64,000 nt of DNA from Candidatus Latescibacterota bacterium (GTDB lineage: Bacteria > Latescibacterota > UBA2968 > GCA-2709665), in the NCBI GenBank assembly GCA_965116875.1, contig OZ220733.1, positions 3,584,001-3,648,000 on the forward strand, read 5' to 3'. Positions 47,000 to 58,883 of the stretch are shown here, piece after piece (positions within the stretch are counted from its first letter, which is position 1; each line of letters starts with the position of its first letter). The position numbers and the translations under genes were made by a program. The notes under the pieces were generated by a model. That model did no database searches. It was not told the origin of the DNA and saw only the letters and a list, made by a program, of their open reading frames with translations.

Positions 47000-48223
47000 T
47001 CAGGCGTAGCAGGCGAGGACGTCGTCGAGGGATCGGGTGGGTTCGAAGAAGGAGAGCACGCGCAGAAGCACGTCATCGACAATGGCGTCGGGGCACGAAG
47101 CACCTGACGTCAGCGCCACGCTCAGGGGGCGTTTGTCCGGCAGCCAGTCCGTTGTATGGGCGGCTTTTTTTGCGTCCAGGCTGAAATGGCGGATCAGGGT
47201 TTCCGAACGGATTTCATCCGCGCCTTTGATAAAATAGGTGGGCATCTGCTCGAGACAGAGTTCGACGATGTGGGACGTATTGGACGAGTTGTACCCGCCC
47301 ACGACCAGCGCCAGATCCGCATCCTGTTCGACGAGGACATACGTCGCGTTCTGGTTTTCATTGGTTGCGTAGCACAGGGTATCCGAAGTGTCGGCATAGT
47401 GATTCAGGATGTTTTCCTCTCCGTAACGGTCCGCCAGCGCGTCCCGGAGGATTGTTGCGATGTGCCGCGTTTCGGTTGCCAGCATGGTTGTCTGATTGAC
47501 GATTCCGATGCGATGGAGGTGTCGGTCCGGGTCAAAGCCCTCCGAGCATTTGTGGCCGAAGCGTTCGTAAAAAACGCTGCGATCCGCCTTGCCCCTGATG
47601 ACGTCTGCAAGCTCATGCGCCTCTTTCATGTCCAGCACCACGACCGTGGGCGCGTCTCGGACGCTGTGAGAGAAAGTGGCGCGCGTCTCCTGGTGGGTGT
47701 CGTTGCCGTGTACGACCACGGAGAATCCCGACTCACCCAGTTTGGCGCTTCGGTTCCAGACCCGCTCCACAAAGGGGCAGGTTGTGTTATACGTGTAAGC
47801 GTCAATGCCGCGGGACGCAAGCGCTTCCTGGATTTCAACCGTTGTGCCGAACGCGGGAACCACGACGATATCTTCCGGCGCAAGGTAATTCCACGGGATG
47901 AGCTGCATTCCGTACGGGTCGAATATGAATTCGACGCCCCTGTCCTTCAGGTCGTTGTTGACGTTCGGATTGTGGATCATTTCGTTGAGGAAATAGATGC
48001 GCCGGTCCGGGTGTTTCTCGAGCGTCCGGTAGGCGATTTCAATGGCGTTTTCCACGCCGAAACAGAACCCGAAATGACGGGCCAGGAGAAATCGGACCGG
48101 GCCGAAGTCGAGTACCGAGGGAGAAAGATCCCGTTTGCGCATGTCCTGCATCTGCCTGTACGCCTTCACGCGCGATATGACGGGACTCTTGTAAAATTCA
48201 GGAATGTCGAATTTGCGTGCCAT
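47000..48223 (-). CDS. ispH: HMBPP reductase (long form)
   Basis: FGFCFGVENA, IHNP, TTCPFV, NQTT, DTLCYAT, VGGYNSSNT, SGASCPD. Confidence 0.95.
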   Translation of the reverse strand: MARKFDIPEFYKSPVISRVKAYRQMQDMRKRDLSPSVLDFGPVRFLLARHFGFCFGVENAIEIAYRTLEKHPDRRIYFLNEMIHNPNVNNDLKDRGVEFIFDPYGMQLIPWNYLAPEDIVVVPAFGTTVEIQEALASRGIDAYTYNTTCPFVERVWNRSAKLGESGFSVVVHGNDTHQETRATFSHSVRDAPTVVVLDMKEAHELADVIRGKADRSVFYERFGHKCSEGFDPDRHLHRIGIVNQTTMLATETRHIATILRDALADRYGEENILNHYADTSDTLCYATNENQNATYVLVEQDADLALVVGGYNSSNTSHIVELCLEQMPTYFIKGADEIRSETLIRHFSLDAKKAAHTTDWLPDKRPLSVALTSGASCPDAIVDDVLLRVLSFFEPTRSLDDVLACYA

Positions 48224-48233
48224 AGCTAACCAG

Positions 48234-48290
48234 GATTCGTCGGTTTTCGGGGACGTTAACCTTGATTCGTAAGTCTTCGGGGACGTTAAT
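48234..48290. repeat. 30-bp period tandem repeat (2 units)
   Basis: GATTCGTCGGTTTTCGGGGACGTTAA and GATTCGTAAGTCTTCGGGGACGTTAA. Confidence 0.65.
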
Positions 48291-48615
48291 TCGAATATGT
48301 GCTTGTAAATAAGGGCGATTAAACTGCTGATTACCAGGATACACCAGGACACTGTACGTGAACGGAAAAAATGTCCTTCTTTACGTCGATAACTCCCCGT
48401 TTCGGAGGGTTTTATCGCGTCGCCGCGTTGCTGTTTTTTCGGATTGAGGTTAATTCGTTATATGTGCAAGTCGATAGGGGCGATTAGACTGCAGATTACC
48501 AGGATACACCAGGTAAGCAGGACGTGAACGAAAAAGATGCCCTTCCTGACGACCATTTCGGCCCGTATCGGGTAGTTTCGTCGGGGTGCCGCGTTGCGGA
48601 ATCTGCGTAATTGAG
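48285..48615. repeat. Degenerate ~165-bp tandem duplication between dut and ispH
   Basis: Units begin GTTAATTCG at 48285 and 48449. Identical core GATTACCAGGATACACCAGG at 48329 and 48494; shared ACGTGAACG and GCCGCGTTGC. Confidence 0.75.
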
Positions 48616-48686
48616 TCTGATAAATCGTAGTGGAATCCCCGCGCCCGGTAACGCGGCGGAATCTCCTTGACGGTTGCTCCTGCTCC

Positions 48687-49136
48687 TCAATCCTGCCCGG
48701 TACTCCCGAACCCGCCTCGATCGGGCGCGTCGAGGCGTTCCGTTTCATCCCAGTCGGCCTGGACGATGCGTACGAATATCCCCTGTGCAAGCCGTTCACG
48801 CCGCCGGACACGTACCGGGCCGTCTGTAAAGTTGTAAACCTGGACGTGGATTTCGTCATTGGGCCCGCGGTAATCCTGATCGACTATGCCCATGCCGTTC
48901 GGTACCATCAGGCCCTTTCTGTGCGGCAGGCTGCTTCGGGCGGCAAGCAGGAGCATGTATCCCGGTGGAACGGCAACGATGAGATTGGCCGGGACAAGCC
49001 GGATTTCGCCCGGCGGGACCACGACGTCCTTCCTGCAGAGCAGATCGAATCCGACCGAGCCGGGAGTCTGGTGGCGCGGTAGAGGGAGCGACGGGTCCAC
49101 CCTCCTGATCCGGATTTTCTTTCGGTACTCGCCCAG
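48687..49136 (-). CDS. dut: dUTP diphosphatase
   Basis: GSVGFDL, ARSSL, GIVDQDYRG, RLAQ, RGGFGSTG. Start is CTG 49136 or GTG 49100. Confidence 0.92.
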   Translation of the reverse strand: MGEYRKKIRIRRVDPSLPLPRHQTPGSVGFDLLCRKDVVVPPGEIRLVPANLIVAVPPGYMLLLAARSSLPHRKGLMVPNGMGIVDQDYRGPNDEIHVQVYNFTDGPVRVRRRERLAQGIFVRIVQADWDETERLDAPDRGGFGSTGQD

Positions 49137-49405
49137 CGTGGCGCTTCCTTTATCTACGGCCTGTCATCAGCAGGTTTATCAATGAAACCATATTAACCAT
49201 CTGCTCGATTGCTGTCAACAGTTTTCCTGAAATTGACGCGAAAAACCGTCGTTACGGACTGCCGTTATGGCTTGACTTTCCGGTACCCCGTCGCAATCAT
49301 ATACAGCGTAAATCCGATGCGTACAGAAGCCCGCGGACACCAACGCGTCGGCGTGTAAAACGCGGTGTCGGCGCGGCCGAAACCATTCTGTGGATTGGAT
49401 GAGAG

Positions 49406-51391
49406 ATGGAAGATCGTTTCGAGCGATGGAAGCGTTTTCTGCTGCCCCTTCCGCATGAGATCACATTCGAGGGGGACGTTGACTGCCGCCCGGAGGCGGT
49501 TTCGGTTGAGGTGAGACCGGGAGCGGAACCGGCCGAGAAGAACGCGGCAACGATGCTGGAAGCGCTGTGCCTGCCTGCAGCGCAGGACGCTGCACAGGCA
49601 GGCGCCGTGGAGGCGGGGGACGCATCCACAGGCGGCGCATTTGTTATTGCGATCGGTCTGGTGGATGGCGGGCCGGATGCCGACAGGCTGAGAAAGTTGC
49701 CGAATTGCGAGCAGGCATATACGATCCGTCCGGAGGGGCGGCGTCTGGTGCTGGCCGCGTTGTCCGGACGCGGGATCACGTATGCCGCCCGTACCCTTCA
49801 CCAACTCCTTGAACCGGGTTTGTCGCCCGGCAGGATCCGTATTCCGCTTGCATCGGTGACCGATTGGCCGGACCTGGAGGAACGGGGAATGTGGAATTTC
49901 CCCACGCCGGAGGAATGGATCCCCTGGATGGCATCGATGAAGTTGAACTACGGCAAGATGGACTCCACGGAGCTGTCGACGGTGGTGCGCGGGAAGCCCA
50001 ACCACGCCCGGATCAATCGTGCGCTTATGGAAAAGGCGCGACTGCTCGGATTCAACTATGTGCCGCTCATCACCCATCTGAACTTTCTGCATGACCGCGG
50101 CCTGTACCGTGCCTATCCCGAACTGGCGGGCAAGGGCGACGGCGCGCTGGCGGGACGTTATTTCGCCCACAAGGAAGGCAACCGGCATCGGGCGCCGTGC
50201 GCGTCCCATCCCGTTCTGGTGGATATTCTGGAAGAGTGGATGGCGGATATCGCCTCGCAGGGCGCGTCCGAGGTGGGTTGCTGGCTGACCGAACGACCCG
50301 CCCAGTGTGGTTGTGACGACTGTACGGCCCTCGGGCAGTTTGTCCTCGAATCCCGGGCGTTCGTGAATGCCTGGAAGCGTATTCGACCGCGGTTTCCGGA
50401 CTTCGACCTTCGCATTTTTCTGTCCACGACGACGTCCCAGCGGGATTACCGCGTCCTGGCGGAGTTGCCTCCGGAGGTGAAAGTCGGGCGGGCATGCGCT
50501 ACCGAAATGGAACGGGTGCTGCATCTGCCCAGGGATCTCACGGCCAATCCCCTGCTGGATTACCACGCTTCGCAGGGGCGATGGATCGCGAGCTACGACG
50601 TGCCGGTCAATGCCAACGGACGGGTGGAGACCCCCGAATTCAAGGTGCCGCAGTCCTCGCCGCACCGGATCCGGGATTTTGTGGGTCATCTGATTCGACG
50701 GAATTACAGCGGCGCCTTCGGGATGATGGCGTGGGTGACCATGGGCAGGGAGACGTGCGGATACAATGTTGCGGCCCTGGCAGAGTACTCCTGGAACCTG
50801 AACGGGCGCACCGAAAGGGAGTTCGCCATCGCGTGGGCCACGAGGGAAGGGTTCGCAAGCGTCGAGGCGTTTGCGGACTGGTCTGAACTGACAGGCCCCG
50901 TTGCGTTCGACGTCTACGATTCCGACTTTCCGGTCTGCTATTCGTGGGGGAAGGCAGTTGAGATGGTTCGCCGCAAACAACGACCGTATCTCGGCGAGGG
51001 CATGTTCCGGTATTACGAAAGTGAAGCGTCCTTCGAGGAAAAGGCCGACGCATGCCGCCAGGCGATTCAGATTGCGTCTGAATTCGAGAGCCCGGATTGC
51101 GCCAATGAGACCCGCGTCGTCATGACCTACGTGGAACTTGCCCGGCGCGTCTATCTCGTTGCGGAGTCGGTGGCGACGCAAGACCTGGCCGACCCGGTCG
51201 TTCAGGCCGGACTTCAGGCGGCGCTCGAGTCGCTCGAGGCCGCCGGCGAGGCGAACGTCGCCGCGATCCGTCACTGGCGAGGGACGCTTGGGCCCGAGCC
51301 GTGGCATTTTCGGGTCCACGACGCGATTCGAGGCACGGAAGCAACCGTTCGAGAAATCGCCCGGTTCCTGCGCGAACGGTACATCAATTAA
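49406..51391 (+). CDS. Uncharacterised protein with GH20 domain-2-like (zincin) N-terminus and probable TIM barrel
   Basis: LLPLPHEI...EQAYTI...GITYAARTLHQL...VTDWPDLEERG is typical of GH20-like domain 2. Contains CGCDDC. Confidence 0.6.
   Translation: MEDRFERWKRFLLPLPHEITFEGDVDCRPEAVSVEVRPGAEPAEKNAATMLEALCLPAAQDAAQAGAVEAGDASTGGAFVIAIGLVDGGPDADRLRKLPNCEQAYTIRPEGRRLVLAALSGRGITYAARTLHQLLEPGLSPGRIRIPLASVTDWPDLEERGMWNFPTPEEWIPWMASMKLNYGKMDSTELSTVVRGKPNHARINRALMEKARLLGFNYVPLITHLNFLHDRGLYRAYPELAGKGDGALAGRYFAHKEGNRHRAPCASHPVLVDILEEWMADIASQGASEVGCWLTERPAQCGCDDCTALGQFVLESRAFVNAWKRIRPRFPDFDLRIFLSTTTSQRDYRVLAELPPEVKVGRACATEMERVLHLPRDLTANPLLDYHASQGRWIASYDVPVNANGRVETPEFKVPQSSPHRIRDFVGHLIRRNYSGAFGMMAWVTMGRETCGYNVAALAEYSWNLNGRTEREFAIAWATREGFASVEAFADWSELTGPVAFDVYDSDFPVCYSWGKAVEMVRRKQRPYLGEGMFRYYESEASFEEKADACRQAIQIASEFESPDCANETRVVMTYVELARRVYLVAESVATQDLADPVVQAGLQAALESLEAAGEANVAAIRHWRGTLGPEPWHFRVHDAIRGTEATVREIARFLRERYIN
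49570..49602. repeat. 33-bp palindromic element, in-frame intragenic copy
   Basis: CCTGCCTGCAGCGCAGGACGCTGCACAGGCAGG, read as LPAAQDAAQAG. Confidence 0.8.
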
Positions 51392-51424
51392 GCGGGTGCA
51401 GACAACACGATTCGGGGAAAGTCG

Positions 51425-52480
51425 ATGCCAATCTTTCCACATCTCAATTTAAGGCAATGCGGATACGCGATATTCGAGGCCGCCGGGCTGCCGGAGGACC
51501 AGGCGCGGACGGTAACGGACCATCTTGTGGACGCGAACCTCGTGGGGCACGACTCTCACGGAATACACCGGATGCCTGGCTACGCGCGCGGCGTCCGGGA
51601 CGGCGCCATCAAGCCGGCCGGAGGCCACAGGGTCGTCCGTGAAACGCCTGTTTCAATGACCATCGACGCTGGAGGCGGGATCGGAATCGCGGTGGCCGGT
51701 CTGGCGATGCGCATGGCGGTCGACCGTGCCGTTGAACACACAATCGGGGCCGTGGCCGTCCATCGTTCAGGCCATATCGGCCGGCTGGGCGAGTTCCCAT
51801 CGATCGCAGCGGAGCGGGACTGTATCGGCATATTGATGTTGAACGGCGGGGGTCGGTTCGCGGCGCCGTTCGGCGGCACGGGCCAGCGGTTGCCTCCCAA
51901 CCCGATCTCGATCGGCGTCCCCACGGGAGACGGGCCGCCGATGACACTGGATATAACCACCTGCATCGTGGCGGGCGGCAAAGTCGACATGTGCCGTATA
52001 CGGGGGCAACCGATGCCCGGAGACTGGATGGTCGACCGGGACGGAAACCCCGTAACCGATCCCGAGGAACTATACTCTGGAAACGCGGCCATGTTGCCTC
52101 TCGGCGGCGCCTATGGCCACAAGGGATACGGCCTGGCGATGATGATCGATGCCATCGCTGGCGGCCTTTCCTGGGCCGGGTGCAGCGCGGAGGCGCCCAC
52201 GCGAGGCGGGAGCGGATATCTGGCGCTTGCAATCAAGATCGAGAGTTTCACCGATGTGGACGACTTCAAGTCAGAGGTGCGGAAGCTGATCGACTGGGTG
52301 AAGTCGTCGCCGACGATGCCGGGAGTGGAGCGGATTTACGTACCGGGAGAAATCGAGACGGAGACCCGGAAGAAGCGGATGTCGGAGGGCGTGTTTCTGG
52401 AGGAGGCGACGTGGCTGGAGATCCGCTCCGTGGCCGAAGAACTTGGCGTGTCGTTGTTGGAAACGGGCGCAGTGGCGTAA
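51425..52480 (+). CDS. Ldh_2-family oxidoreductase (type II malate/lactate dehydrogenase family)
   Basis: GHDSHG, HIGRLG, NPISIG, GHKGYGL, YVPGE. Confidence 0.92.
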   Translation: MPIFPHLNLRQCGYAIFEAAGLPEDQARTVTDHLVDANLVGHDSHGIHRMPGYARGVRDGAIKPAGGHRVVRETPVSMTIDAGGGIGIAVAGLAMRMAVDRAVEHTIGAVAVHRSGHIGRLGEFPSIAAERDCIGILMLNGGGRFAAPFGGTGQRLPPNPISIGVPTGDGPPMTLDITTCIVAGGKVDMCRIRGQPMPGDWMVDRDGNPVTDPEELYSGNAAMLPLGGAYGHKGYGLAMMIDAIAGGLSWAGCSAEAPTRGGSGYLALAIKIESFTDVDDFKSEVRKLIDWVKSSPTMPGVERIYVPGEIETETRKKRMSEGVFLEEATWLEIRSVAEELGVSLLETGAVA

Positions 52481-52666
52481 GAAGCTGTCTTAAAATTCCC
52501 AGCGGTCTTCGCACGGCTGCAAGAGCGCCGGTCAGCGTTGGTCAAACCCACCCGTATAGACAAATATGGGCGGGTTTTCCCGCCTTGACCGCCACTCTTT
52601 CGCTCGCGCTCGGGAGCTCACCGGTAATTTTAAGACAACTTCTAAATTTCCCGATGGAGATTTCAT

Positions 52667-55294
52667 ATGCCGGATCGGCCTGGTTCGGTCATCGACTTCT
52701 GTAAGGCGGTCCTGCCGCTGCTGAACGCGAGTACGGACGGCAAACGGGTTCTGGAGGACGTGCGTGCCGTAGTGGCGACGGACCGATGGAACTCGTTTGA
52801 CCGGTTCCGGGAAACCACCGAATATCTGGTGAGCCGCTTCGAAGAATCAGGCGCGAAGGCGGAAGTGCATACCATGCGTACCGGTGGGTCCATCGGATCG
52901 GGGAGATGGATCATCCATAAGGCCGCAGACGTGCGTTCGGCGACCTTGGATGTGATTCATCCGGTAAAGAAGCGCATTCTGGACTATCGGGAGAATCCCT
53001 GGCACGTGATTCAATGGAGCGGCGCCACGCAGCCCGGAGGGATGGAGAGCGAACTGGCTGTCGTGGATTCCAGGGAGGCCCTGAGTCGAGTTTCCCGGGG
53101 CGGGCTGGACGGAAAGACGGTACTCACGCGAATGGACCCGCGCGGAATGTTGCGGTCTTTCGCGGAAGCCGGCGCGGCGGCGGTGGTCACGGATCACCCC
53201 GTGCCGAATCTGCCCAACGCGACCGCATGGACGAAATTCGGATGGGGAGGCGTACCGATTCAGGACGCGGCTGTTCAGATGGTGGGCCTGGTCCTGTCCG
53301 AAAACCAGGGCAAACGGCTGCGCGGGCTGTTTGGCAGACACGGCTCGCTGACGGTCCGGACAGACGTGGATATCCGGCATTACGCCGGCACTCACGGTCA
53401 GGTGAGCGGGGTTGTGCCGGGTGCGGCCGACCCGCAGGACGAAGTATGGGCGCTTGCGCACAGCGCGGAGCCGGGCGCGATCGACAACGCATCCGGCGTG
53501 GCGCTGTGCCTCGAGATCGCCCGCGTGCTCGAGCAGCTGATCGCAGCCGGTAAGCTGCCGCGGCCCCGCCGCACCATTCGCCTGATGAGTGCATACGAAT
53601 GTCACGGGTTCTTCAAGTACCTCGAGGATACGCAGCGTCTGCAAACCCCTCTTGCGGGCGTCGTGATCGATTCGGTGGGAAGCAAACCGTCTGTCTGCGG
53701 CGGCCGGATCGAATGGCATGCCACGATTCCGATGTCGGCCGGCTTCGTGGACAGGCTGGGCGAGACGATTCTGACGGAAACGCTCCGGCTGCGGAATCCC
53801 GGATATCGTCTGCATTTGGAGCCGTTTCAACCCACGTCCGATACGCTGATCGGCGATCCGAAATATGGGTTTCCGTGTCCCTGGCTCACCACGCATCACC
53901 ACAAGCCCGGGCGGGGGTTCGACGCGTACCACTCATCCGCGGATACGCCGGACCTGTTGAGTACAAGGGGGCTGGCTGCCTGCGCGACGGCCATGACGGG
54001 TTATCTGTACTGGCTGGCGGACGCGGGCACAGCGGAGATTGAGGACGTCGCCGCCGCGGAGACCGCACGGACGGTCGGGCGGTTGACAAGGGGGAACCCA
54101 TCGGTCGCGCAGGTCGACTACGAACGCGAGCAGCACCGGGTCATCCTGGAGAAACTTGAACGCTGGATGTGGGGCGGGCGGCGGCGGGACCTCCTGGCCG
54201 GGTTCGCCAGCCACGAGCGGGAGGTGAGGGAAGCCGCCCGGAGCGCGTCAAAAGGCAAAAGAAGAACGCGTCGCAGGCGCGTTGAAGGCGGAGACCGGAT
54301 ACCGAGGCGTACCCGTTTGCTGTCACCCATAGGTGAGAATACGCCGCCCGGGATCGCCGGCCGGATCGGCGGGACGGGGCTATCGCCCTGGGCGCTGTTC
54401 TGGGCGGACGGCAGCCGTACGCTGCACGAGATCGCGCAGGCCGTAGCGAGCGAAACCGGGAGCACGGTCAGGACGGAGCACGCAATCGAATATTTCGAAG
54501 CCCACAGTGAATTGGGATACGTGGAACTTATCGACGAATCGGAGCGGGTGACGCGCGAGGGCCTGATGAAGGACCTTGACGCGCTGGGCCTCGCCAGGGG
54601 CATGGACGTCATGGTGCACAGTTCCCTGTCATCGATCGGACACGTGGTGGGCGGCGCGGATACCGTAATCGAATCGCTGCTGGCGGTGATCGGAAAGCGC
54701 GGCACCCTGATGATGCCGTCGTTCAATCACCGGGCCGCACAGGTGTACAATCCGATGACAACGCCGACGACCAACGGAGCGATCCCTGATGCGTTCTGGC
54801 GGCGCCCGGACGCGGTCAGAAGCGACCATCCCACGCACGCCGTGGCTGCCGTGGGGCCGCGGGCCGAAGCCTATTGCAGGGACCACGGCAAAAAGGGACT
54901 CTGGACGCCTGACAGCCCGATCGGCCGGCTCGTACACGGAAACGGACACATCGTCCTGCTCGGTGTCGACCACAACGCCACAACCGCTTACCACGTGGCG
55001 GAGTTATCCGTGCCCTGCGGCTGCATCGACCCGTTCGGGAATACCTATCGAGTCGTATCGGCCGATGGCAACGTGCGCAGGGTCCGGGGGCTGGCGTTCA
55101 GATCGGCGCTGTGTCCGGTGCCGCCGGGAAAGCTGAACAGGGCTCTGGATCGCAGGGGGAAGCAACGCCGCGGAAAAGTGGGTAAGGCCGATTCGATCTT
55201 CGTCCCGGCAATAGAGGTCTGGAAGGCGCGGCGGGACCATCTCCGGCGCGTATGTCCGACGTGTGACATCAAGCCCGCTATCGTGGCGCCATAG
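52667..55294 (+). CDS. Fusion: M28/DUF4910-like metallohydrolase plus AAC(3)-family N-acetyltransferase
   Basis: AHSAEPGAIDNASG, YECHG, IDSVG, YHSSADT, then a wHTH. From about aa 628: VMVHSSLSSIG, GTLMMPSF, RSDHPTHAVAA, LLGVDHNATTAYHVAE. Confidence 0.8.
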   Translation: MPDRPGSVIDFCKAVLPLLNASTDGKRVLEDVRAVVATDRWNSFDRFRETTEYLVSRFEESGAKAEVHTMRTGGSIGSGRWIIHKAADVRSATLDVIHPVKKRILDYRENPWHVIQWSGATQPGGMESELAVVDSREALSRVSRGGLDGKTVLTRMDPRGMLRSFAEAGAAAVVTDHPVPNLPNATAWTKFGWGGVPIQDAAVQMVGLVLSENQGKRLRGLFGRHGSLTVRTDVDIRHYAGTHGQVSGVVPGAADPQDEVWALAHSAEPGAIDNASGVALCLEIARVLEQLIAAGKLPRPRRTIRLMSAYECHGFFKYLEDTQRLQTPLAGVVIDSVGSKPSVCGGRIEWHATIPMSAGFVDRLGETILTETLRLRNPGYRLHLEPFQPTSDTLIGDPKYGFPCPWLTTHHHKPGRGFDAYHSSADTPDLLSTRGLAACATAMTGYLYWLADAGTAEIEDVAAAETARTVGRLTRGNPSVAQVDYEREQHRVILEKLERWMWGGRRRDLLAGFASHEREVREAARSASKGKRRTRRRRVEGGDRIPRRTRLLSPIGENTPPGIAGRIGGTGLSPWALFWADGSRTLHEIAQAVASETGSTVRTEHAIEYFEAHSELGYVELIDESERVTREGLMKDLDALGLARGMDVMVHSSLSSIGHVVGGADTVIESLLAVIGKRGTLMMPSFNHRAAQVYNPMTTPTTNGAIPDAFWRRPDAVRSDHPTHAVAAVGPRAEAYCRDHGKKGLWTPDSPIGRLVHGNGHIVLLGVDHNATTAYHVAELSVPCGCIDPFGNTYRVVSADGNVRRVRGLAFRSALCPVPPGKLNRALDRRGKQRRGKVGKADSIFVPAIEVWKARRDHLRRVCPTCDIKPAIVAP

Positions 55295-55329
55295 GCGGAC
55301 ATCCCCACACCTGGAGAGAGTAGAACGCC

Positions 55330-56625
55330 ATGAATACGGCGCGATCCGCAGCGCTCTTCGATTCGAGTTCTCGCTACCTCGCGATGGGTGTGTCATCCGG
55401 GATGAGACGCGCCGTGACCTCTCCGCCGCTTTTCTTCGAGCGGGCTGACGGGCCATATTACCACGACGTGGACGGGAACCGATTGCTGGACTACACACTG
55501 GCGTGGGGACCGTTGATCCTTGGTTCGAACCACCCGGAGCTGAACGCGGCGGTGACGGCGGCGGTCCGGAGTTCATACACCCTGGGCGCCCAGCATCCGG
55601 GCGAGATCGCGTTCGCAAAGCTGCTGGTGGAAACACTTCCGGGCGTGGACCAGGTGATTTTCTCCAATACGGGTTCCGAAGCCGTTCATGCGGCGCTGCG
55701 GCTTGCCCGCGCGGCCACCGGACGGGCAAAATTCGTCAAATTCGAGGGGCACTATCACGGCTGGTTGAACAATATTCTGGTGAGTTACCACGAATCCGAC
55801 GAAGCGCTTGGCCCTCCGGAGGCGCCCCGGGTCGTGGCCGCGTGCGGCGGGCAGCCTGCGGCGGAGTTCGCGGAGACGGTAACGCTTCCCTGGAACCGTA
55901 TCGACCTGCTGGAAGACCTGTTCGCCAGGAGGGGCGGGGAAATCGCGGCGGTGATCACCGAGCCGGTGCTGGCCAACTCCGGATCGATCATGCCCGGGGA
56001 GGGGTTCCTGAAAGGAATGGTCGACCTGTGCCGGAACTATGGCGCGGTTTCGATATTCGACGAGGTCATCACGGGTTTCCGCCTTGCGCTTGGCGGCGCG
56101 CGGGAATACTTCAACGTCATCCCGGATCTGTCGGTCTACGCAAAAGCCCTCGCCGGCGGCTTTACACTGTCCGCCGTTGCGGGCTCGCGGAGCATGTTCG
56201 ACGCACTCAGAGACGGCGCGACGATCCACGCGGGAACGTACAACGGCAGCACGGTCAATCTGGCCGCGGGGCTTGCGACGGTGAAGATTCTCGGCGCAAA
56301 TCCCCTGGCTTTCCGGCAGATGCATGGGCATGGATACGCGATTCGGCAGGCGATCGAATCGGCCGCGGTTTGCAGGGGAATACCGGTATGCACCTCGGGA
56401 GCAGGTACCGTCTTCAACGTTCACTTTGGCGTGCAGTCTCCACCCGCGCACTATCGGGAACTGAGGAAAACGGATATGGCGCTTTACAACCGGTTCCGGG
56501 CCGGCATGCTGGAGGAGGGTATACAGTTGTTGCCCGATGGCCGCTGGTACGTGGGCCTGACTCACGGCGACGAGGAATTGAACCTGGTGCGTGGGGCGGT
56601 TCGGTCGGTGGTCGCGGGGCTCTAG
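55330..56625 (+). CDS. Class-III PLP aminotransferase (GSA-aminomutase-like)
   Basis: DVDGNRLLDY, NTGSEA, FEGHYHG, FDEVITGFR, YAKALAGG, HAGTYNG. Confidence 0.88.
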   Translation: MNTARSAALFDSSSRYLAMGVSSGMRRAVTSPPLFFERADGPYYHDVDGNRLLDYTLAWGPLILGSNHPELNAAVTAAVRSSYTLGAQHPGEIAFAKLLVETLPGVDQVIFSNTGSEAVHAALRLARAATGRAKFVKFEGHYHGWLNNILVSYHESDEALGPPEAPRVVAACGGQPAAEFAETVTLPWNRIDLLEDLFARRGGEIAAVITEPVLANSGSIMPGEGFLKGMVDLCRNYGAVSIFDEVITGFRLALGGAREYFNVIPDLSVYAKALAGGFTLSAVAGSRSMFDALRDGATIHAGTYNGSTVNLAAGLATVKILGANPLAFRQMHGHGYAIRQAIESAAVCRGIPVCTSGAGTVFNVHFGVQSPPAHYRELRKTDMALYNRFRAGMLEEGIQLLPDGRWYVGLTHGDEELNLVRGAVRSVVAGL

Positions 56626-56663
56626 TCGGCGTTGGGCCAGCAGTATCTGTACGGTCAAAATCC

Positions 56664-56692
56664 TTGACAATGTCGGGGCGTTATGGTAAAAT
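56664..56692 (+). promoter_or_regulatory. Sigma70 promoter
   Basis: TTGACA-17bp-TAAAAT with extended TG. Confidence 0.75.
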
Positions 56693-56756
56693 CACAAAGA
56701 ATCCCGGAATACCCGTTCGATTCCAGGTTCAGACGGGAGTCTGGAGGAAATTGTCT

Positions 56757-57533
56757 ATGGGGATGGATGACATTCAGCCACTTCTGGATAGCTGGCCCTT
56801 CGAGCCCGACAAACTCTGTGTGAGGCGAATCAAGGGGAAGGACGGCACGGAGAAGATCCAGCTCCGGGTGGAGATGGGTATCCTGCAGATGGAGGTCGCC
56901 GGACGTCCTGACGGGCAGCGTCCTCACGGTTGTGAATCTCTGCTCCACTACTACAAGGAGAAAGCCGGGACGGCGCTGCGGGACTCGAAGTCGTTCAACC
57001 TCGATCCCGATGTCTGCCTTACGCTTCAGGTTGAAGGGCTTCAGTATTACCACCGGCGGATCAGCTTTCTGGAGCTCGGTGAATATCGACTTGCGCAGGA
57101 GGATGCTCAACGAAACCTCGACATGTTCGACTTCGTCAAGGAATTCGCGCGGGAAGAAGAAGACAGCATGGTTCTCGAGCAGTACAGGCCCTTTGTAATC
57201 GGGCATCGCATTCGCGCGGTGGTTCTTCAGGAACTTGAAGCTGAGAATTTCGATCGGGCGCTTCTGGAGATCAACAACGGCATCGAGGAGATCCAGGGCT
57301 TTTACAAAGACTACGACCGGCCCGACCTGGTGGAAGACAGTGAAGAGGTGGTATTTCTGAAGGAGTGGGCGGAGGAGATCCGAAAGGATCGGCCTAGGCC
57401 CCTTTTCCAGGACCTGAAGGAACAACTCAGCGAGGCCGTTGCCATTGAAGATTTCGAACGGGCCGCGCAGCTTCGGGACCAGCTCCAGGCGCTTTCTCCA
57501 GGGGCGGAGAGACAGCCCGGAACCCGCAAATAG
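56757..57533 (+). CDS. Conserved hypothetical protein with C-terminal UVR (UvrB/C) motif
   Basis: IQLRVEMGILQMEVAGRPDG, QYYHRR, EQYRPF, AVAIEDFERAAQLRD; RBS GGAGG. Confidence 0.8.
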   Translation: MGMDDIQPLLDSWPFEPDKLCVRRIKGKDGTEKIQLRVEMGILQMEVAGRPDGQRPHGCESLLHYYKEKAGTALRDSKSFNLDPDVCLTLQVEGLQYYHRRISFLELGEYRLAQEDAQRNLDMFDFVKEFAREEEDSMVLEQYRPFVIGHRIRAVVLQELEAENFDRALLEINNGIEEIQGFYKDYDRPDLVEDSEEVVFLKEWAEEIRKDRPRPLFQDLKEQLSEAVAIEDFERAAQLRDQLQALSPGAERQPGTRK

Positions 57534-57581
57534 GGCCGGGCGCCGGGCGCGCCTCTGAGTGCAGGGGAGGAGAACCTTCAA

Positions 57582-58883
57582 TTGGCAGTTCACGAACGTA
57601 TCACGAGGAAGGAGCCGGAACGCGCGATTCTGGTGGGGATGGAGCAGCCGGGCCATACATCCTGGGATGCAATCGACACCCTGAATGAACTTGCGTTGCT
57701 CGCGGATACGGCGGGAGCGCAGGTTGTGGACCGGGTCGTGCAGAAGCGGGATCGCATCGATCCGGCTTTTTTTATCGGTCGGGGAAAGGCTGGGGAACTT
57801 GCGCTCCGCGTGAAGCAACTCAGCGCGCAACTGGTGATTTTCGACGATGACCTGTCGCCCGCCCAGTTCAAGAATCTGGAAGAACTCGCGGGAGTCAACG
57901 TAATCGACAGGAGCCGGCTGATTCTGGACATTTTCGCCGGCAGGGCGAAGACCCGCGAAGCGCAGACACAGGTGGAGTTGGCGCAACTCAACTATCTGCT
58001 GCCGCGTCTGACGCGCCGGTGGACGCATCTGTCGCGCCAGGCCGGTCACGGCGGAACAACCGGCGGAATCGGGACACGCGGGCCGGGCGAGACCCAACTG
58101 GAAGTGGACCGGCGGGCGCTGCGGAGTCGTATCGGGGTACTGTCCAGAGCGCTGAACAGAATCACCCGTCGCCGCGTGCTCGGACGCAAACAGCGAACGG
58201 ATGGGTTTCGTGTCTCCCTCGTGGGCTATACAAATGCAGGAAAGTCAACACTGATGCGCGCACTTTCCGGCGCCGACGTTCTGGTCGAAGACCGCCTGTT
58301 CGCAACGCTGGATTCCACAACCCGCCGGGTTTATCTGGGGTACAATCGTGAGGTCCTGCTGACCGATACGGTCGGCTTCATTCGAAAGCTCCCTCATCAC
58401 CTTGTCGCATCGTTCAGGAGCACCCTCGAAGAGGCCGTGGATGCGGACCTGTTGCTGCATGTTGTCGACGTCAGTCATCCCAGGTGCGAGGATCAGATCG
58501 CGTCGGTGTATGAAACCCTTCAGGGTCTGGGCATTGCGGAGTATCCCACGTTGATGGCTTTCAACAAGATCGACCGGTCTGGCGACCCGGCGATGCAGCG
58601 GCGCCTGCGATCCGCGTTTCCCGATGGCATCTGGGTGTCCGCGCAGGAAGCCCAGGGCCTGGACGAACTTCGATGGGCGATTTACGACCGGCTCGAGGGC
58701 CAGCGAACGGTGATGAATCTGCGCATTCCACAGGCGGAAGGAAAGCTGCTCTCGGAACTGTATCGTGTCGGCGAAATTCTGAATACAGCCTATGAAGGAA
58801 ACGACGTGCTGCTGGAGATTAAACTGAGCCAGCAGAATACACGGCGGCTTCTGCCGGATGGAAGATTTCGGATCAAACGGTAA
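57582..58883 (+). CDS. hflX: GTPase HflX
   Basis: ILDIFA, QVELAQL, GPGETQLE, GYTNAGKST, DTVGF, NKID. Confidence 0.96.
   Translation: MAVHERITRKEPERAILVGMEQPGHTSWDAIDTLNELALLADTAGAQVVDRVVQKRDRIDPAFFIGRGKAGELALRVKQLSAQLVIFDDDLSPAQFKNLEELAGVNVIDRSRLILDIFAGRAKTREAQTQVELAQLNYLLPRLTRRWTHLSRQAGHGGTTGGIGTRGPGETQLEVDRRALRSRIGVLSRALNRITRRRVLGRKQRTDGFRVSLVGYTNAGKSTLMRALSGADVLVEDRLFATLDSTTRRVYLGYNREVLLTDTVGFIRKLPHHLVASFRSTLEEAVDADLLLHVVDVSHPRCEDQIASVYETLQGLGIAEYPTLMAFNKIDRSGDPAMQRRLRSAFPDGIWVSAQEAQGLDELRWAIYDRLEGQRTVMNLRIPQAEGKLLSELYRVGEILNTAYEGNDVLLEIKLSQQNTRRLLPDGRFRIKR

Follow-up and report, generated by a model that had tools for sequence, protein, structure and literature searches.

What a metallohydrolase and an N-acetyltransferase accomplish together within one polypeptide, and whether the genes beside them take part, is the question raised by this locus. 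It lies in a 64,000-nucleotide stretch of DNA (hereafter, the window) that comes from an uncultured, probably sponge-associated bacterium. Fusions of this kind are so far unstudied. The original prediction proposed an enzyme exchanging one acyl group for another within an amino-compound editing cluster, and the four open reading frames (ORFs) were found where it had placed them, all on the plus strand and separated by gaps of 33, 186, and 35 bp. The features are as follows, in window positions.

49406..51391, plus strand: 661-aa GH20b-like protein (Pfam Glyco_hydro_20b, 31.5 bits, residues 12–154)
51425..52480, plus strand: Ldh_2-family dehydrogenase (Pfam Ldh_2, 339.8 bits)
52481..52642, no strand: MITE-like dispersed repeat of 162 bp containing a hairpin (terminal inverted repeats, target-site duplication, copies)
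52667..55294, plus strand: 875-aa fusion protein P0001, M28-type metallohydrolase module plus AAC(3)-type N-acetyltransferase (ORF, translation, Pfam)
52667..54532, plus strand: N-terminal module, residues 1–622 (Foldseek, VIA-align, profile search)
53459..53485, plus strand: H265...E268...D273, motif AHSAEPGAIDNASG, predicted first metal His and bridging Asp of the M28 site
53597..53602, plus strand: E311-C312, presumed general-base Glu, then Cys at the canonical position of the second metal-binding Glu
53669..53671, plus strand: D335, presumed metal ligand
53930..53944, plus strand: H422...D426 in AYHSSADT, predicted last metal His of the M28 site
54533..55291, plus strand: AAC(3)/Antibiotic_NAT acetyltransferase domain, residues 623–875 (Pfam PF02522, PDB sequence matches, VIA)
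54983..55003, plus strand: TAYHVAE (T773–E779), the family's Tx(Phi)H(Phi)AE catalytic His/Glu motif
55013..55264, plus strand: cysteines C784, C786, C816, C863, and C866 (last two in CPTC), candidate structural metal site
55330..56625, plus strand: class-III aminotransferase, glutamate-1-semialdehyde-aminomutase-like paralogue (Pfam Aminotran_3)

The fusion is genuine and is neither an assembly chimera nor a singleton. Its ORF begins with ATG, with GGAG 8 nt upstream, and the domain junction near 54530 was bridged by contigs from independent runs (X4, 54470–54876; X20, an RNA library, 54434–54678). Among the matches listed, 118 of 120 homologues covered at least 97% of the query at 55%–93% identity, and a full-length fusion copy was present in 88 of 168 genomes of the phylum. 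The ORF list, the full-length homologues, and the bridging contigs together bear out the prediction of a single uninterrupted reading frame joining two enzymes.

The fusion is also old and widespread. All nine of the long distant relatives tested (865–942 aa) had both domains, and fused forms only 25%–29% identical to the window protein were found at six metagenome loci. Fused C-terminal domains were near-monophyletic (16 out of 17 in one set; three changes on a 76-row tree) and shared at most about 45% identity with their nearest stand-alone proteins. Sequence comparison thus points to a fusion that is ancient and recurrent. The unfused family, with proteins of about 650 aa, was far larger than the fused set, and an AAC(3) gene occurred in the flank of only 2 of 52 unfused metagenome loci, about 7 kb distant. 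Since most of the family lacks a fused AAC(3) domain and flanking AAC(3) genes are rare, coupling of the two activities is not obligatory.

The N-terminal ~620 residues are modeled, with high fold confidence, as a metallohydrolase of the M28 clan, built in three lobes like glutamate carboxypeptidase II (GCPII) and the transferrin receptor. In the AlphaFold model of the fusion protein (pLDDT 91.2, pTM 0.91), an M28 catalytic core (~240–455) and an inserted PA-like lobe (~86–240) are accompanied by a helical region (433–528), a basic linker (528–548), and a small alpha/beta lobe (545–622), all limits being approximate. Foldseek matched the module to GCPII, GCPIII, NAALADL, and the transferrin receptor (E ~1e-19 to 1e-20, 700–760 columns). 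VIA-align gave Z 28.8 against the Vibrio/Aeromonas aminopeptidase and LapA (261–265 residues aligned) and Z 27–28 against TfR/GCPII (402–453 aligned), and profile A2 matched NAALADL 4twe (E 6.9e-6). The module had been labeled M28/DUF4910-like, and the M28 part of this label held, by the GCPII-type fold and by Pfam Peptidase_M28 (29.2 bits against a cut-off of 21.3, over a match of only 42 residues), but DUF4910 scored 18.6 bits, under its cut-off of 26.6. Several distant relatives, unfused and fused, exceeded that DUF4910 cut-off (e.g., 68, 57.5, and 40 bits).

Like GCPII, NAALADase, and the transferrin receptor (MEROPS M28B; 3fee, 2oot, 4twe, 1de4), the fusion protein combines an M28 core with an inserted apical PA-like lobe and a helical lobe; the Pfam PA and TFR_dimer models gave no match on it. 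Unlike that group, it has a C-terminal acetyltransferase and no membrane anchor or signal peptide. It is likely to be cytoplasmic, since it would need acetyl-CoA and inspection of its translation revealed no hydrophobic N-terminus.

The apparent metal ligands that had been pointed out are strongly conserved. HMMER aligned AHSAEPGAIDNASG with the H...GAxDxxSG motif of NAALADL, GCPIII, 2EK8, and 3IIB, and AYHSSADT aligned with the yHtpnDt motif of 2EK8 and 3IIB; both the H...GAxDxxSG and yHxxxD motifs are shared with the GCPII group. The motif register, together with the location of E311-C312 between strand and helix in the model, suggests that these two residues correspond to the M28 "EE" pair. 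Across 110 family representatives, spanning roughly 25%–90% identity and including unfused forms, the expected residue was retained at H265 in 109, D273 in 108, E311 in 109, D335 in 110, H422 in 108, and D426 in 107. H265, D273, E311, C312, D335, and H422 were invariant across 58 full-length close homologues, and H265, D273, E311, D335, and H422 were also kept in AAC(3)-less paralogues. Position 312 was variable among the 110 representatives (C in 54, M in 13, I in 10, F in 7). As judged from these alignments, the M28 metal site is reduced or altered, with His, Asp, Glu, Asp, and His retained and the second Glu replaced by Cys. This departs from the GCPII group, and the hydrophobic residue found at that position in many relatives makes classical two-zinc peptidase chemistry doubtful.

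Sequence and model agree in identifying the C-terminal ~250 residues as an acetyl-CoA-dependent N-acetyltransferase of the AAC(3)/YokD/FrbF type with an intact His/Glu dyad, and the domain is complete, as predicted. Pfam Antibiotic_NAT (PF02522) matched residues 649–857 at 164.5 bits, PDB sequence matches included YokD, AAC(3)-IVa, and FrbF (E 2e-25 to 1e-22), and VIA gave Z 28–30 with rmsd 2.2–3.0 across 233–245 residues. With AAC(3)-IVa, YokD, BA2930, and FrbF (Antibiotic_NAT fold), the domain shares a whole-domain structural match at 22%–32% identity, the conserved VHSS His, and the Tx(Phi)H(Phi)AE dyad, which one study defines as the catalytic motif of the AAC(3) family (PMC8956665). It differs from them in that fused C-terminal domains form their own near-monophyletic branch and in that its scores lie below all resistance-family cut-offs. 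Within TAYHVAE, H776 and E779 were invariant in 58 homologues and T773 was present in at least 90%. The CPTC terminus noted earlier is there (...VCPTC..., with C863 and C866); C786, C816, C863, and C866 were invariant in the 58 homologues, C784 was kept in at least 90%, and the C-terminal CxxC was nearly invariant even among fused forms at 24%–32% identity. These five cysteines possibly form a structural metal site.

The neighboring genes fared less well as pathway partners. The upstream gene described as GH20-like lies in the expected position and strand, but the match of the 661-aa protein is confined to GH20 domain 2, which is non-catalytic, and Pfam, NCBIfam, and PDB comparisons revealed no catalytic GH20 domain. 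It has no obvious signal peptide, its PDB matches were limited to weak, N-terminal ones to the GH84 enzyme BT_4395, and its atlas neighbors were "hypothetical protein" clusters with GH20b alone. Within the order, 20 of the 53 genomes had the gene, nearly all of them in the window's own family; in family f2, a single genome out of 31 had it. The Ldh_2 assignment was confirmed, with the protein falling under every NCBIfam equivalog cut-off. Its orthologues (57%–91% identity) were present in 50 of the 53 genomes, including all 21 of the fusion-less genus g11, and Ldh_2 is therefore a syntenic neighbor, phyletically independent of the fusion. The class-III aminotransferase does follow the fusion by 35 bp. 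It is not HemL, as the hemL model gave 333.6 bits against a cut-off of 527 and a different gene of this genome is the true hemL (609.7 bits). Its orthologue occurred in 24 of the 53 genomes, in no case without the fusion, but most genomes with the fusion lack it: five such genomes in the order, and 75 of the 76 genomes in f4, the largest family that has the fusion. Elsewhere in the window's genome, a paralogous class-III aminotransferase gene shares a 4-bp overlap with a stand-alone AAC(3) gene.

A dedicated four-gene pathway in which the GH20-like, Ldh_2, fusion, and aminotransferase products jointly edit an amino compound thus appears very unlikely, and for Ldh_2 it is largely refuted. The genes are co-directional with short gaps (the Ldh_2–fusion gap is just 21 bp in MITE-less relatives L001, L003, and L005–L008), and the block is retained in 17 loci. 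However, those loci represent a single clade that also retains the housekeeping neighbors M16, LytB, and HflX, which indicates vertical synteny. Both genomes of genus g2 lack the GH20b-like gene, the fusion, and the aminotransferase, and one (G040) also lacks Ldh_2, but joint deletion of adjacent genes is expected regardless of function. The neighborhood is poorly conserved: none of the three neighbors adjoined the fusion in 49 of 70 fetched loci, and when neighbor sequences were clustered, no family reached beyond 4 of the 52 metagenome units.

We favor, at a probability of roughly 0.5, a self-contained cytoplasmic bifunctional enzyme that would combine amide hydrolysis with N-acetylation of amino compounds released by glycan or glycoconjugate breakdown, such as amino sugars or glyco-amino acids. 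Both sites would act successively on one small amine-bearing molecule, one cleaving an amide, to take off an aminoacyl or acyl group or to shorten a peptide, and the other capping a free amine with acetate. Such "acyl-swap" chemistry, as originally proposed, remains reasonable because both halves retain their catalytic signatures. The fusion would act on its own and not as a set step in a four-gene cluster, and the aminotransferase may have been recruited beside it in the window's order, perhaps supplying or removing the amine.

Genomic context across unrelated lineages gives a weak glycan or amino-sugar signal. GH123 genes overlap the family gene in one fused (L028) and one unfused (L139) locus; in the window's family it adjoins a GH20b-like gene, and in genus g31 it has BNR sialidase-like, PIG-L, and Amidohydro_2 genes on its flanks; at L051 and L097 it is followed after 10 bp by a DHDPS/NanA-like gene. 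Glycosidase genes were nearby in about 6–7 of roughly 22 evaluable units in a first set and in 8 of 38 metagenome units in a second (GH2, GH3, GH4, GH35, GH94, GH127, or 3-keto-disaccharide hydrolase, at most two genes away), frequencies that may be near background in these CAZyme-rich phyla. HGSNAT, the lysosomal heparan-alpha-glucosaminide N-acetyltransferase, is a membrane enzyme that N-acetylates a sugar amine, free or unusually substituted, which has to happen before an N-acetylhexosaminidase can act. It has no sequence or fold relationship to the fusion, and the analogy is one of logic only; if the amino-sugar reading is true, HGSNAT-like logic would explain the GH123 and GH20b-like adjacency.

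Peptide-type neighbors were also seen (M19 dipeptidase, M55, gamma-glutamyltranspeptidase, AstE/AspA, MR_MLE), and the enzyme might instead process peptides or amino acids. The GCPII-like module would trim a small peptide, possibly N-blocked, gamma-linked, or containing D-residues, and the AAC(3) domain would acetylate the alpha-amine of substrate or product, as in the NAAG/N-acetyl-aspartate pair or the last two steps of the mercapturate pathway. In overall build the nearest enzymes are PA-domain aminopeptidases and GCPII/NAALADase, whose substrate is N-acetyl-Asp-Glu. AAC(3)-less paralogues lie among GNAT, DAO, M55 D-aminopeptidase, gamma-glutamyltranspeptidase, AstE/AspA, and MR_MLE genes, L027 and L019 have M19 dipeptidase genes close to the fusion, and other AAC(3)-like genes of the window's genome adjoin S15, S9, and M55 peptidase genes. 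We nonetheless consider this unlikely: the contexts come from few loci, partly of paralogues, the characterized AAC(3) members compared here act on aminoglycosides or a phosphonate nucleotide rather than peptides, and the canonical second zinc ligand is absent. In another reading, only the acetyltransferase would be catalytic and the M28 module would be a binding, oligomerization, or regulatory scaffold, like the transferrin receptor; the second-Glu position is unconserved, and the fold is as near to the non-catalytic transferrin receptor as to GCPII.

A relevant comparison for the scaffold reading is CA_C2195 of Clostridium acetobutylicum (3K9T; DUF4910 + DUF2172 + HTH_47), which likewise has a divergent M28-like domain with His/Asp/His metal binding. 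Its authors judged the family's conserved pattern unlike known peptidase sites, and described some gene fusions and a genomic link of the DUF4910/M28 family to amino-sugar N-acetyltransferases and amino-sugar modification loci, in line with the association cited in the original prediction (PMC4000134). That family occurs in biosynthetic glycan loci, whereas the fusion does not; 3K9T was only a marginal profile match (E 0.07) and was not among the chains listed by Foldseek and VIA-align for the fusion model, and neither DUF2172 nor HTH_47 was found in the fusion protein at E up to 5. The conservation of H265, D273, E311, D335, H422, and D426, in unfused forms too, is hard to explain without a metal-dependent function, which leaves a non-catalytic M28 module distinctly improbable. 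Least credible is a role in aminoglycoside resistance, as an AAC(3)-type enzyme bearing an accessory domain. Automatic source names read aminoglycoside 3-N-acetyltransferase and AAC(3)-IVa is among the nearest solved relatives, but scores fell far under every NCBIfam AAC(3) cut-off (129 vs 420, 124 vs 270), inheritance is vertical and wide in uncultured environmental lineages with no mobile-element context, and the domain is fused with a conserved hydrolase.

The hairpin at about 52544–52577, proposed as possibly splitting the cluster, is a real structure (81 nt, −39.6 kcal/mol, z = −6.9), but it is the core of a MITE rather than a dedicated terminator. The 162-bp repeat has terminal inverted repeats matched at 17 of 18 positions and is flanked by a TAA duplication (52478–52480 and 52643–52645), which places the insertion exactly at the Ldh_2 stop codon. 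Forty scored copies were 92%–100% identical, and 75 copies of at least 140 bp, on both strands, had a median identity of 92.7%. Word depth in three DNA runs was 48–272 in the two MITE bins, compared with at most about 10 over the remaining stretch, and in run X3 one contig passes directly from 52477 to 52643 with the intervening 165 bases missing, which is the empty site.

The 875-residue protein carries two folded catalytic modules in one chain, with conserved catalytic signatures, and the fusion is ancient and widespread. As originally predicted, the ORF list gave a single uninterrupted frame with a class-III aminotransferase gene 35 bp after it on the same strand. The four co-directional ORFs are separated, in order, by 33, 186 and 35 bp, and further out Pfam identified two M16 peptidase genes, LytB (opposite strand) and HflX.

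Features of the fusion locus (ORF list, with Pfam scores)
49406-51391, + strand: GH20b-like gene, 661 aa
51425-52480, + strand: Ldh_2 gene, 351 aa (Ldh_2, 339.8 bits)
52481-52642, 162 bp: miniature inverted-repeat element (MITE), flanked by TAA at 52478-52480 and 52643-52645, the left TAA being the Ldh_2 stop codon
52667-55294, + strand: fusion gene, 875 aa
55330-56625, + strand: class-III aminotransferase gene, 431 aa (Aminotran_3, 192.4 bits)

The fusion is neither a chimeric assembly nor a singleton, both of which were ruled out by full-length homologues, genome counts and contigs across the junction. Searching 5.8 billion proteins through a word index gave 400 matches; among the 120 matches listed, 118 spanned 97% or more of the query with identities of 55-93%, and 119 carried the acetyltransferase domain PF02522. 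A scan of species-representative genomes yielded 74 loci, many on complete chromosomes. Within the phylum, 130 of 168 genomes matched at E <=1e-20, a count that includes genomes with AAC(3) paralogues only, and 88 of 168 had a full-length match with E = 0. Matches occurred in 74 of the 76 genomes of one large family and in none of the 21 genomes of one genus. Contigs of two independent public runs also bridge the domain junction near nt 54530 (X4, 54470-54876; X20, an RNA library, 54434-54678). This evidence applies to the contig-covered parts of the stretch, and the X20 contigs, which cover parts of the fusion gene, are not proof of transcription. Public runs holding the locus were labelled sponge or coral-reef metagenomes. 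The fusion is present in most genomes of one whole class of uncultured bacteria, as well as in far more distant metagenomic lineages.

The AlphaFold2 model of the fusion, built with 58 homologues, had a mean pLDDT of 91.2 and a pTM of 0.91, which points to a defined domain arrangement. For the N-terminal ~620 residues, Foldseek retrieved human glutamate carboxypeptidase II and III (GCPII, GCPIII), NAALADase L and the transferrin receptor (E ~1e-19 to 1e-20; 700-765 columns against the GCPII/transferrin receptor group), along with the PA-domain bacterial aminopeptidases 2EK8, PaAP and 3IIB. VIA-align placed 402-453 residues on the transferrin receptor and GCPII (Z 26.9-28.3), and 261-265 residues on the M28 aminopeptidase fold of the Aeromonas/Vibrio aminopeptidase and Legionella LapA and LapB (Z 28.2-28.8, rmsd 2.6-2.7). 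The module therefore has the three-lobed structure of GCPII and the transferrin receptor, but the PA and TfR-like dimerisation domains are not recognisable by sequence, with no PA or TFR_dimer Pfam match at E <=0.01, nor on sub-regions at E <=5.

The fusion had been described as M28/DUF4910-like, and the M28 part of that description stands: Peptidase_M28 (PF04389) scored 29.2 bits, above the Pfam cut-off of 21.3, although it covered residues 266-307 only, and distant relatives fill nearly the whole model (P0345, positions 1-192 of 193, 64.7 bits). The DUF4910 part does not hold for the fusion itself, where PF16254 scored 18.6-20.6 bits, below its cut-off of 26.6. The founding DUF4910 structure, CA_C2195 (3K9T; PMC4000134), was absent among the Foldseek and VIA-align chains listed and reached only E 0.07 in the search with the N-terminal-module profile, versus 6.9e-6 for NAALADL; its companion domains DUF2172 and HTH_47 gave no match in sub-regions of the fusion at E <=5. 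DUF4910 scored above cut-off in several more distant relatives, so the fusion family bridges M28 and DUF4910, and the two families grade into each other.

The canonical M28 co-catalytic site consists of His, Asp, a Glu-Glu pair, Asp and His, in which the second Glu binds zinc. HMMER aligned AHSAEPGAIDNASG (H265, D273) and AYHSSADT (H422, D426) with the metal-binding motifs of NAALADL, GCPIII, 2EK8 and 3IIB. Five of the six predicted metal-site residues were near-invariant, and the counts across 110 wider-family representatives were 109 for H265, 108 for D273, 109 for E311, 110 for D335, 108 for H422 and 107 for D426. The apparent metal ligands were thus conserved, and the place of the second Glu is apparently taken by Cys312. 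This Cys was present in 58 of 58 close homologues, while the 110 representatives had C in 54, M in 13, I in 10 and F in 7, with V also occurring. The register of the Glu pair was read from the motif pattern and the strand-to-helix position in the model rather than from an alignment; canonical M28 proteins of the same genome, sought for aligning the Glu pair, gave weak or partial matches throughout. Based on this register, E311 may serve as the general base, and the site would bind either one metal or, in the window's subfamily, a second metal via the Cys.

The C-terminal domain matches the Antibiotic_NAT/AAC(3) family in whole-domain sequence, fold and catalytic motif. Antibiotic_NAT (PF02522) matched residues 649-857 with 164.5 bits, spanning model positions 1-229 of 232, and the protein ends with the predicted CPTC (C863-P-T-C866). 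Foldseek retrieved FrbF, YokD, AAC(3)-IVa and meta-AAC0038, and VIA-align gave Z 28-30 over 233-245 residues for AAC(3) enzymes, BA2930, YokD and FrbF. According to PMC8956665, the catalytic His/Glu dyad sits in the family motif Tx(Phi)H(Phi)AE. The corresponding motif in the fusion is T773-A-Y-H776-V-A-E779, and H776 and E779 were invariant in 58 sequences, as was H651 of a VHSS motif. Five cysteines (C784, C786, C816, C863 and C866) were invariant or nearly so among the 58 homologues, and the C-terminal CxxC was kept in fused forms of 24-32% identity; these cysteines may form a structural metal site. The domain has no close stand-alone relative; whole stand-alone proteins reached at most ~45% identity. 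Short matches of at least 53% identity, most of them from short contigs, appear to be fragments. One apparent Peptidase_S9-AAC(3) fusion (P0186) was set aside as a probable artefact: its single 3-kb contig encodes an amino-acid-kinase-like start, an AAC(3) fragment and an alpha/beta hydrolase end.

Further AAC(3)-like genes were observed in the same genome (C1). A second aminotransferase/AAC(3) pair lies at C1:1990572-1993261 (L089:5772-8461, minus strand), where a 630-aa class-III aminotransferase protein with a ~200-aa N-terminal extension of no assigned domain overlaps a 266-aa AAC(3)-like gene by 4 bp. This paralogous pairing modestly supports a recurring aminotransferase-acetyltransferase logic. 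A 519-aa protein encoded at C1:2750359-2756119 (L086:759-6519, minus strand) carries an AAC(3) domain (residues 25-230), and its ~290-aa C-terminal half is without an assigned domain. Its gene is followed on the same strand by genes for an S15 X-Pro dipeptidyl-peptidase, a Kelch-repeat protein and an M55 D-aminopeptidase, and a metallo-beta-lactamase-fold gene lies upstream.

Searching the N-terminal-module profile against 1.84 billion cluster representatives (50%-identity clusters) gave 1952 proteins at E <=1e-3, with 489 at E <=1e-30. Among the best 150 of the 1952, 87 were 600-699 aa and 21 had an AAC(3) domain, 13 of these at full length (865-942 aa). Pfam confirmed both domains in nine out of nine long distant members, and 12 shorter members had M28 and/or DUF4910 without PF02522. 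Fused proteins sharing no more than 25-29% identity with the window protein are encoded at six metagenome loci. In a tree of 76 AAC(3) domains (17 fused and the 59 nearest stand-alone), 16 of the 17 fused domains grouped together with good support, in a set that included just one stand-alone row; the remaining fused domain was nested among stand-alone proteins, giving three changes between fused and unfused. The fused state was scattered in the N-domain tree (10 changes, at least nine of them forced), but some "unfused" rows may be truncated at contig ends, so this count is not evidence of repeated fusion. The history is most simply read as a single old fusion, after which the C-terminal domain was lost repeatedly and re-fused at least once. 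Complete chromosomes carry unfused forms that end in proper stop codons beside a full-length copy (L026 with L014, L064 with L012), and forms of this type retain all metal residues. A Rosetta-stone arrangement of an unfused relative next to a separate AAC(3) gene was ruled out, as such a gene occurred in only two of 52 loci, ~7 kb away.

Some members of the family differ in length or copy number. In two genera the fusion frame stays open 300-500 codons further upstream (L095:4092-7655 and L097:2427-6575; 1187-1382 aa), and open frames of 958-1382 aa in genera g28 and g31 had no extra Pfam domain; these may be real N-terminal extensions or open frames in G+C-rich DNA. Distant unfused relatives (~695 aa) form tandem arrays of two or three copies in L103:3850-8066 and L104:3700-10512, where they follow genes for a RhaT-like sugar transporter and a URO-D-like protein. 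In L125, L143 and L150, too, unfused relatives have a URO-D-like gene next to them.

The original prediction had the fusion acting with the GH20-like, Ldh_2 and aminotransferase genes as one pathway, and the patchy presence of these neighbours argues against it. We compared the window's neighbours by tblastn with 70 fetched loci holding the fusion. The GH20b-like/Ldh_2/fusion block was present in 17 loci, 15 of which also had the aminotransferase; of the other two, one reached its contig end after the fusion and one lacked the aminotransferase. Three loci had Ldh_2 and the aminotransferase without the GH20b-like gene, one had the aminotransferase as sole companion, and 49, some with short flanks, had none of the three. 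The 17-locus group formed one clade of the fusion tree (16 rows, support 98). The four partial loci fell into another clade, and none of the three neighbours occurred in the largest one (34 rows). Since the 17-locus clade also keeps M16, LytB and HflX, we interpret its block as vertical synteny.

Genome-wide counts separated the three neighbours. Aminotransferase orthologues (62-96% identity) occurred in 24 of the 53 genomes of the order, all fusion-bearing; five fusion-bearing genomes (genera g4, g8 and g10) lacked it, 24 genomes lacked both genes, and only one of 76 genomes of the main fusion-bearing family had it. Because it was never found without the fusion and was often missing, the aminotransferase is a lineage-restricted companion conditional on the fusion. 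Of the 53 genomes, 50 carry an Ldh_2 orthologue (57-91%), among them all 21 genomes of the fusion-less genus, and Ldh_2 is thus independent of the fusion. The GH20b-like gene, found in 20 of 53 genomes and in one of 31 in a second family, is a family-level neighbour. Tblastn of the window's neighbours in 74 loci, clustering of 889 and 608 neighbour ORFs in two sets, and Pfam on neighbours identified no conserved operon partner, and the largest neighbour family by sequence clustering occupied at most four of 52 metagenome units.

Of the predicted upstream genes, Ldh_2 was confirmed, whereas the GH20 resemblance extended to domain 2 and not to the catalytic domain. The sole Pfam match of the 661-aa protein was the non-catalytic, N-terminal Glyco_hydro_20b (31.5 bits); Pfam found no catalytic GH20 domain (PF00728), and an NCBIfam GlcNAcase model scored 27 against a cut-off of 1000 bits. 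The protein shows no obvious signal peptide. In the Atlas, the closest clusters are "hypothetical proteins" from Planctomycetota and Latescibacterota, and clusters bearing DUF4838 and GH67N are more remote. The downstream aminotransferase is not HemL, with 333.6 bits against the TIGR00713 cut-off of 527.3; the true hemL of the genome is at C1:2218580-2219845 (609.7 bits).

The hairpin predicted near 52544-52577 is real as a fold (81 nt, -39.6 kcal/mol, z = -6.9), but it belongs to a mobile element and is not a dedicated terminator. The 162-bp repeat that contains it is a MITE: its many near-identical copies are dispersed, it has terminal inverted repeats and a target-site duplication but no coding capacity, and an allele with the empty site exists. 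The repeat had 40 scored copies at 92-100% identity (98 candidates), and 75 copies of at least 140 bp (median 92.7% identity) lie on both strands of the 5.45-Mb genome; the terminal inverted repeats match at 17 of 18 bases. In three independent DNA runs, word depth over two element bins was 48-272 versus at most ~10 elsewhere in the stretch, and loose contig ends fell at both element boundaries. One contig of metagenome run X3 joins 52477 to 52643 and so represents the empty site, and relatives without the insertion (L001, L003, L005-L008) have a gap of 21 bp between Ldh_2 and the fusion. A dedicated terminator or riboswitch was ruled out by this identity together with Rfam, which found nothing in 48200-57700 at E <=1 except a sub-threshold Cyano-2 on the other strand, and a terminator scan, which found no + strand site at 52544-52577.

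At the Pfam level, neighbours of the wider family showed two diffuse themes, one glycan/amino-sugar and one peptide/amino-acid. For the first, a GH123 gene overlaps the 3' end of both a fused form (L028) and an unfused relative (L139; GH123_N, 899.7 bits), and this double adjacency in distant members is the most specific context item. The GH20b-like gene adjoins the fusion in the window's family, and in L051 and L097 the family gene is followed after 10 bp by a DHDPS/NanA-like gene, a sialate O-acetylesterase gene being close by. Genus g31 has large BNR (sialidase-like) proteins upstream and Amidohydro_2 and PIG-L deacetylase genes downstream, and BNR genes also lie near L020 and L060. GH2, GH94, GH3, GH4, GH35, GH127 or 3-keto-disaccharide hydrolase genes were within two genes in eight of 38 units, and GFO/IDH/MocA and xylose-isomerase-like genes recurred. 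These phyla are CAZyme-rich and a glycosidase among four neighbours is not rare, so the glycan signal is suggestive only. For the second theme, M19 dipeptidase genes lie near L027 and L019, S15, S9 and M55 peptidase genes adjoin other AAC(3)-like genes of the same genome, and GNAT, DAO, M55, gamma-glutamyltranspeptidase, AstE/AspA and MR_MLE genes surround unfused paralogues.

The N-terminus of the fusion has no hydrophobic signal-like stretch and the C-terminal domain needs acetyl-CoA, which together suggest a cytoplasmic enzyme. We consider it about evenly balanced (probability about 0.5) that the fusion combines amide hydrolysis with N-acetylation. The M28 module would act as a metal-dependent amidohydrolase, the AAC(3) domain would N-acetylate a primary amine, and both sites would work in sequence on one substrate, whether by an acyl swap, by cleaving and then capping, or by acetylating and then cleaving, as in N-acetylated dipeptides. 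Clan MH also includes N-acyl-amino-acid deacylases. Within this two-step reading, glycan-derived amino compounds are favoured. A more specific and clearly less probable proposal casts the fusion as an "N-substituent normalising" enzyme in glycan breakdown. An amino sugar, an oligomer of amino sugars or a nonulosonic acid would lose a non-acetyl N-acyl or aminoacyl group at the M28-like site, or the substrate might arrive already de-N-acetylated, and the AAC(3) site would re-acetylate the freed amine at once. Enzymes needing a 2-acetamido group (GH123, GH20-type hexosaminidases, NanA-like lyases) could then finish the breakdown; genes of these three types adjoin the fusion in separate lineages.

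Other readings are each less probable than the two-step one. Processing of peptides, which the M28 fold and peptidase-type neighbours would suit, is possible but doubtful. The M28 module could instead be a non-catalytic scaffold; Cys312 in place of the second Glu would be compatible with this, while five near-invariant metal-site residues, retained also in unfused forms, point to a working site, and we regard a scaffold as unlikely. A dedicated four-gene pathway would explain the short gaps and the block of the 17-locus clade, and given the 49 loci without any of the neighbours it is quite improbable. An aminoglycoside resistance enzyme is the least probable reading: the fold and motif are those of AAC(3) enzymes, but scores fell far below the NCBIfam cut-offs of the resistance subfamilies (AAC_3_IV 129 versus 420, AAC_3 124.1 versus 270, AAC_3_II 75 versus 480).

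Both halves come from well-studied families, GCPII/PSMA being a drug target and imaging antigen and AAC(3) proteins antibiotic-resistance enzymes, and a fusion naturally points to two reactions that belong together. Once known, the substrate would provide an annotation for ~2000 clusters of related proteins, and it could bring to light a new step by which amino-sugar or peptide-like compounds are turned over. If the normalising proposal is true, the fusion would be a soluble bacterial counterpart of the lysosomal acetylation step in heparan sulfate breakdown and would give a first function to the M28/DUF4910 family, a large and so far uncharacterised group of cytoplasmic proteins (1952 clusters at 50% identity). 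A promiscuous acetyltransferase with a vestigial peptidase domain would be of modest interest. A full-text search, judged on titles and abstract starts, found no paper on an M28-AAC(3) fusion, although the supplementary tables of PMC4000134 might list one. Database names of homologues are generic ("AAC(3) family N-acetyltransferase", "DUF4910 domain-containing protein", "M28 family peptidase"), and the label "aminoglycoside N-acetyltransferase" probably misleads resistance-gene surveys of environmental and sponge metagenomes. We consider the fusion of moderate interest for its breadth, clean architecture and likely mislabelling as a resistance gene.

Several minor observations concern the flanks. 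Long ORFs at 47156-48229 (+) and 56655-58097 (-), antisense to LytB and to HflX with the gene before it, had no Pfam match and were less conserved than the genes they shadow (e.g., 91% versus 97% in L001); they are probably not genes. Throughout the window's clade, the interval between the aminotransferase and HflX encodes a protein of ~250-370 aa whose C-terminus bears a UvrB/UvrC (UVR) motif (L001:11859-12797; in the window, between 56625 and 57582). HflX is downstream of the fusion in this clade (window 57582-58883), and in several clades an ABC-F type ATPase (two ABC_tran plus ABC_tran_Xtn) is just upstream (L028:7983-9875, L048:6375-8276, L051:5477-7426, L058:7953-9920, L097:7662-9608 and L167:2380-4338). 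Both are ribosome-associated factor families, and their position beside the fusion may reflect plain housekeeping synteny or a real link.
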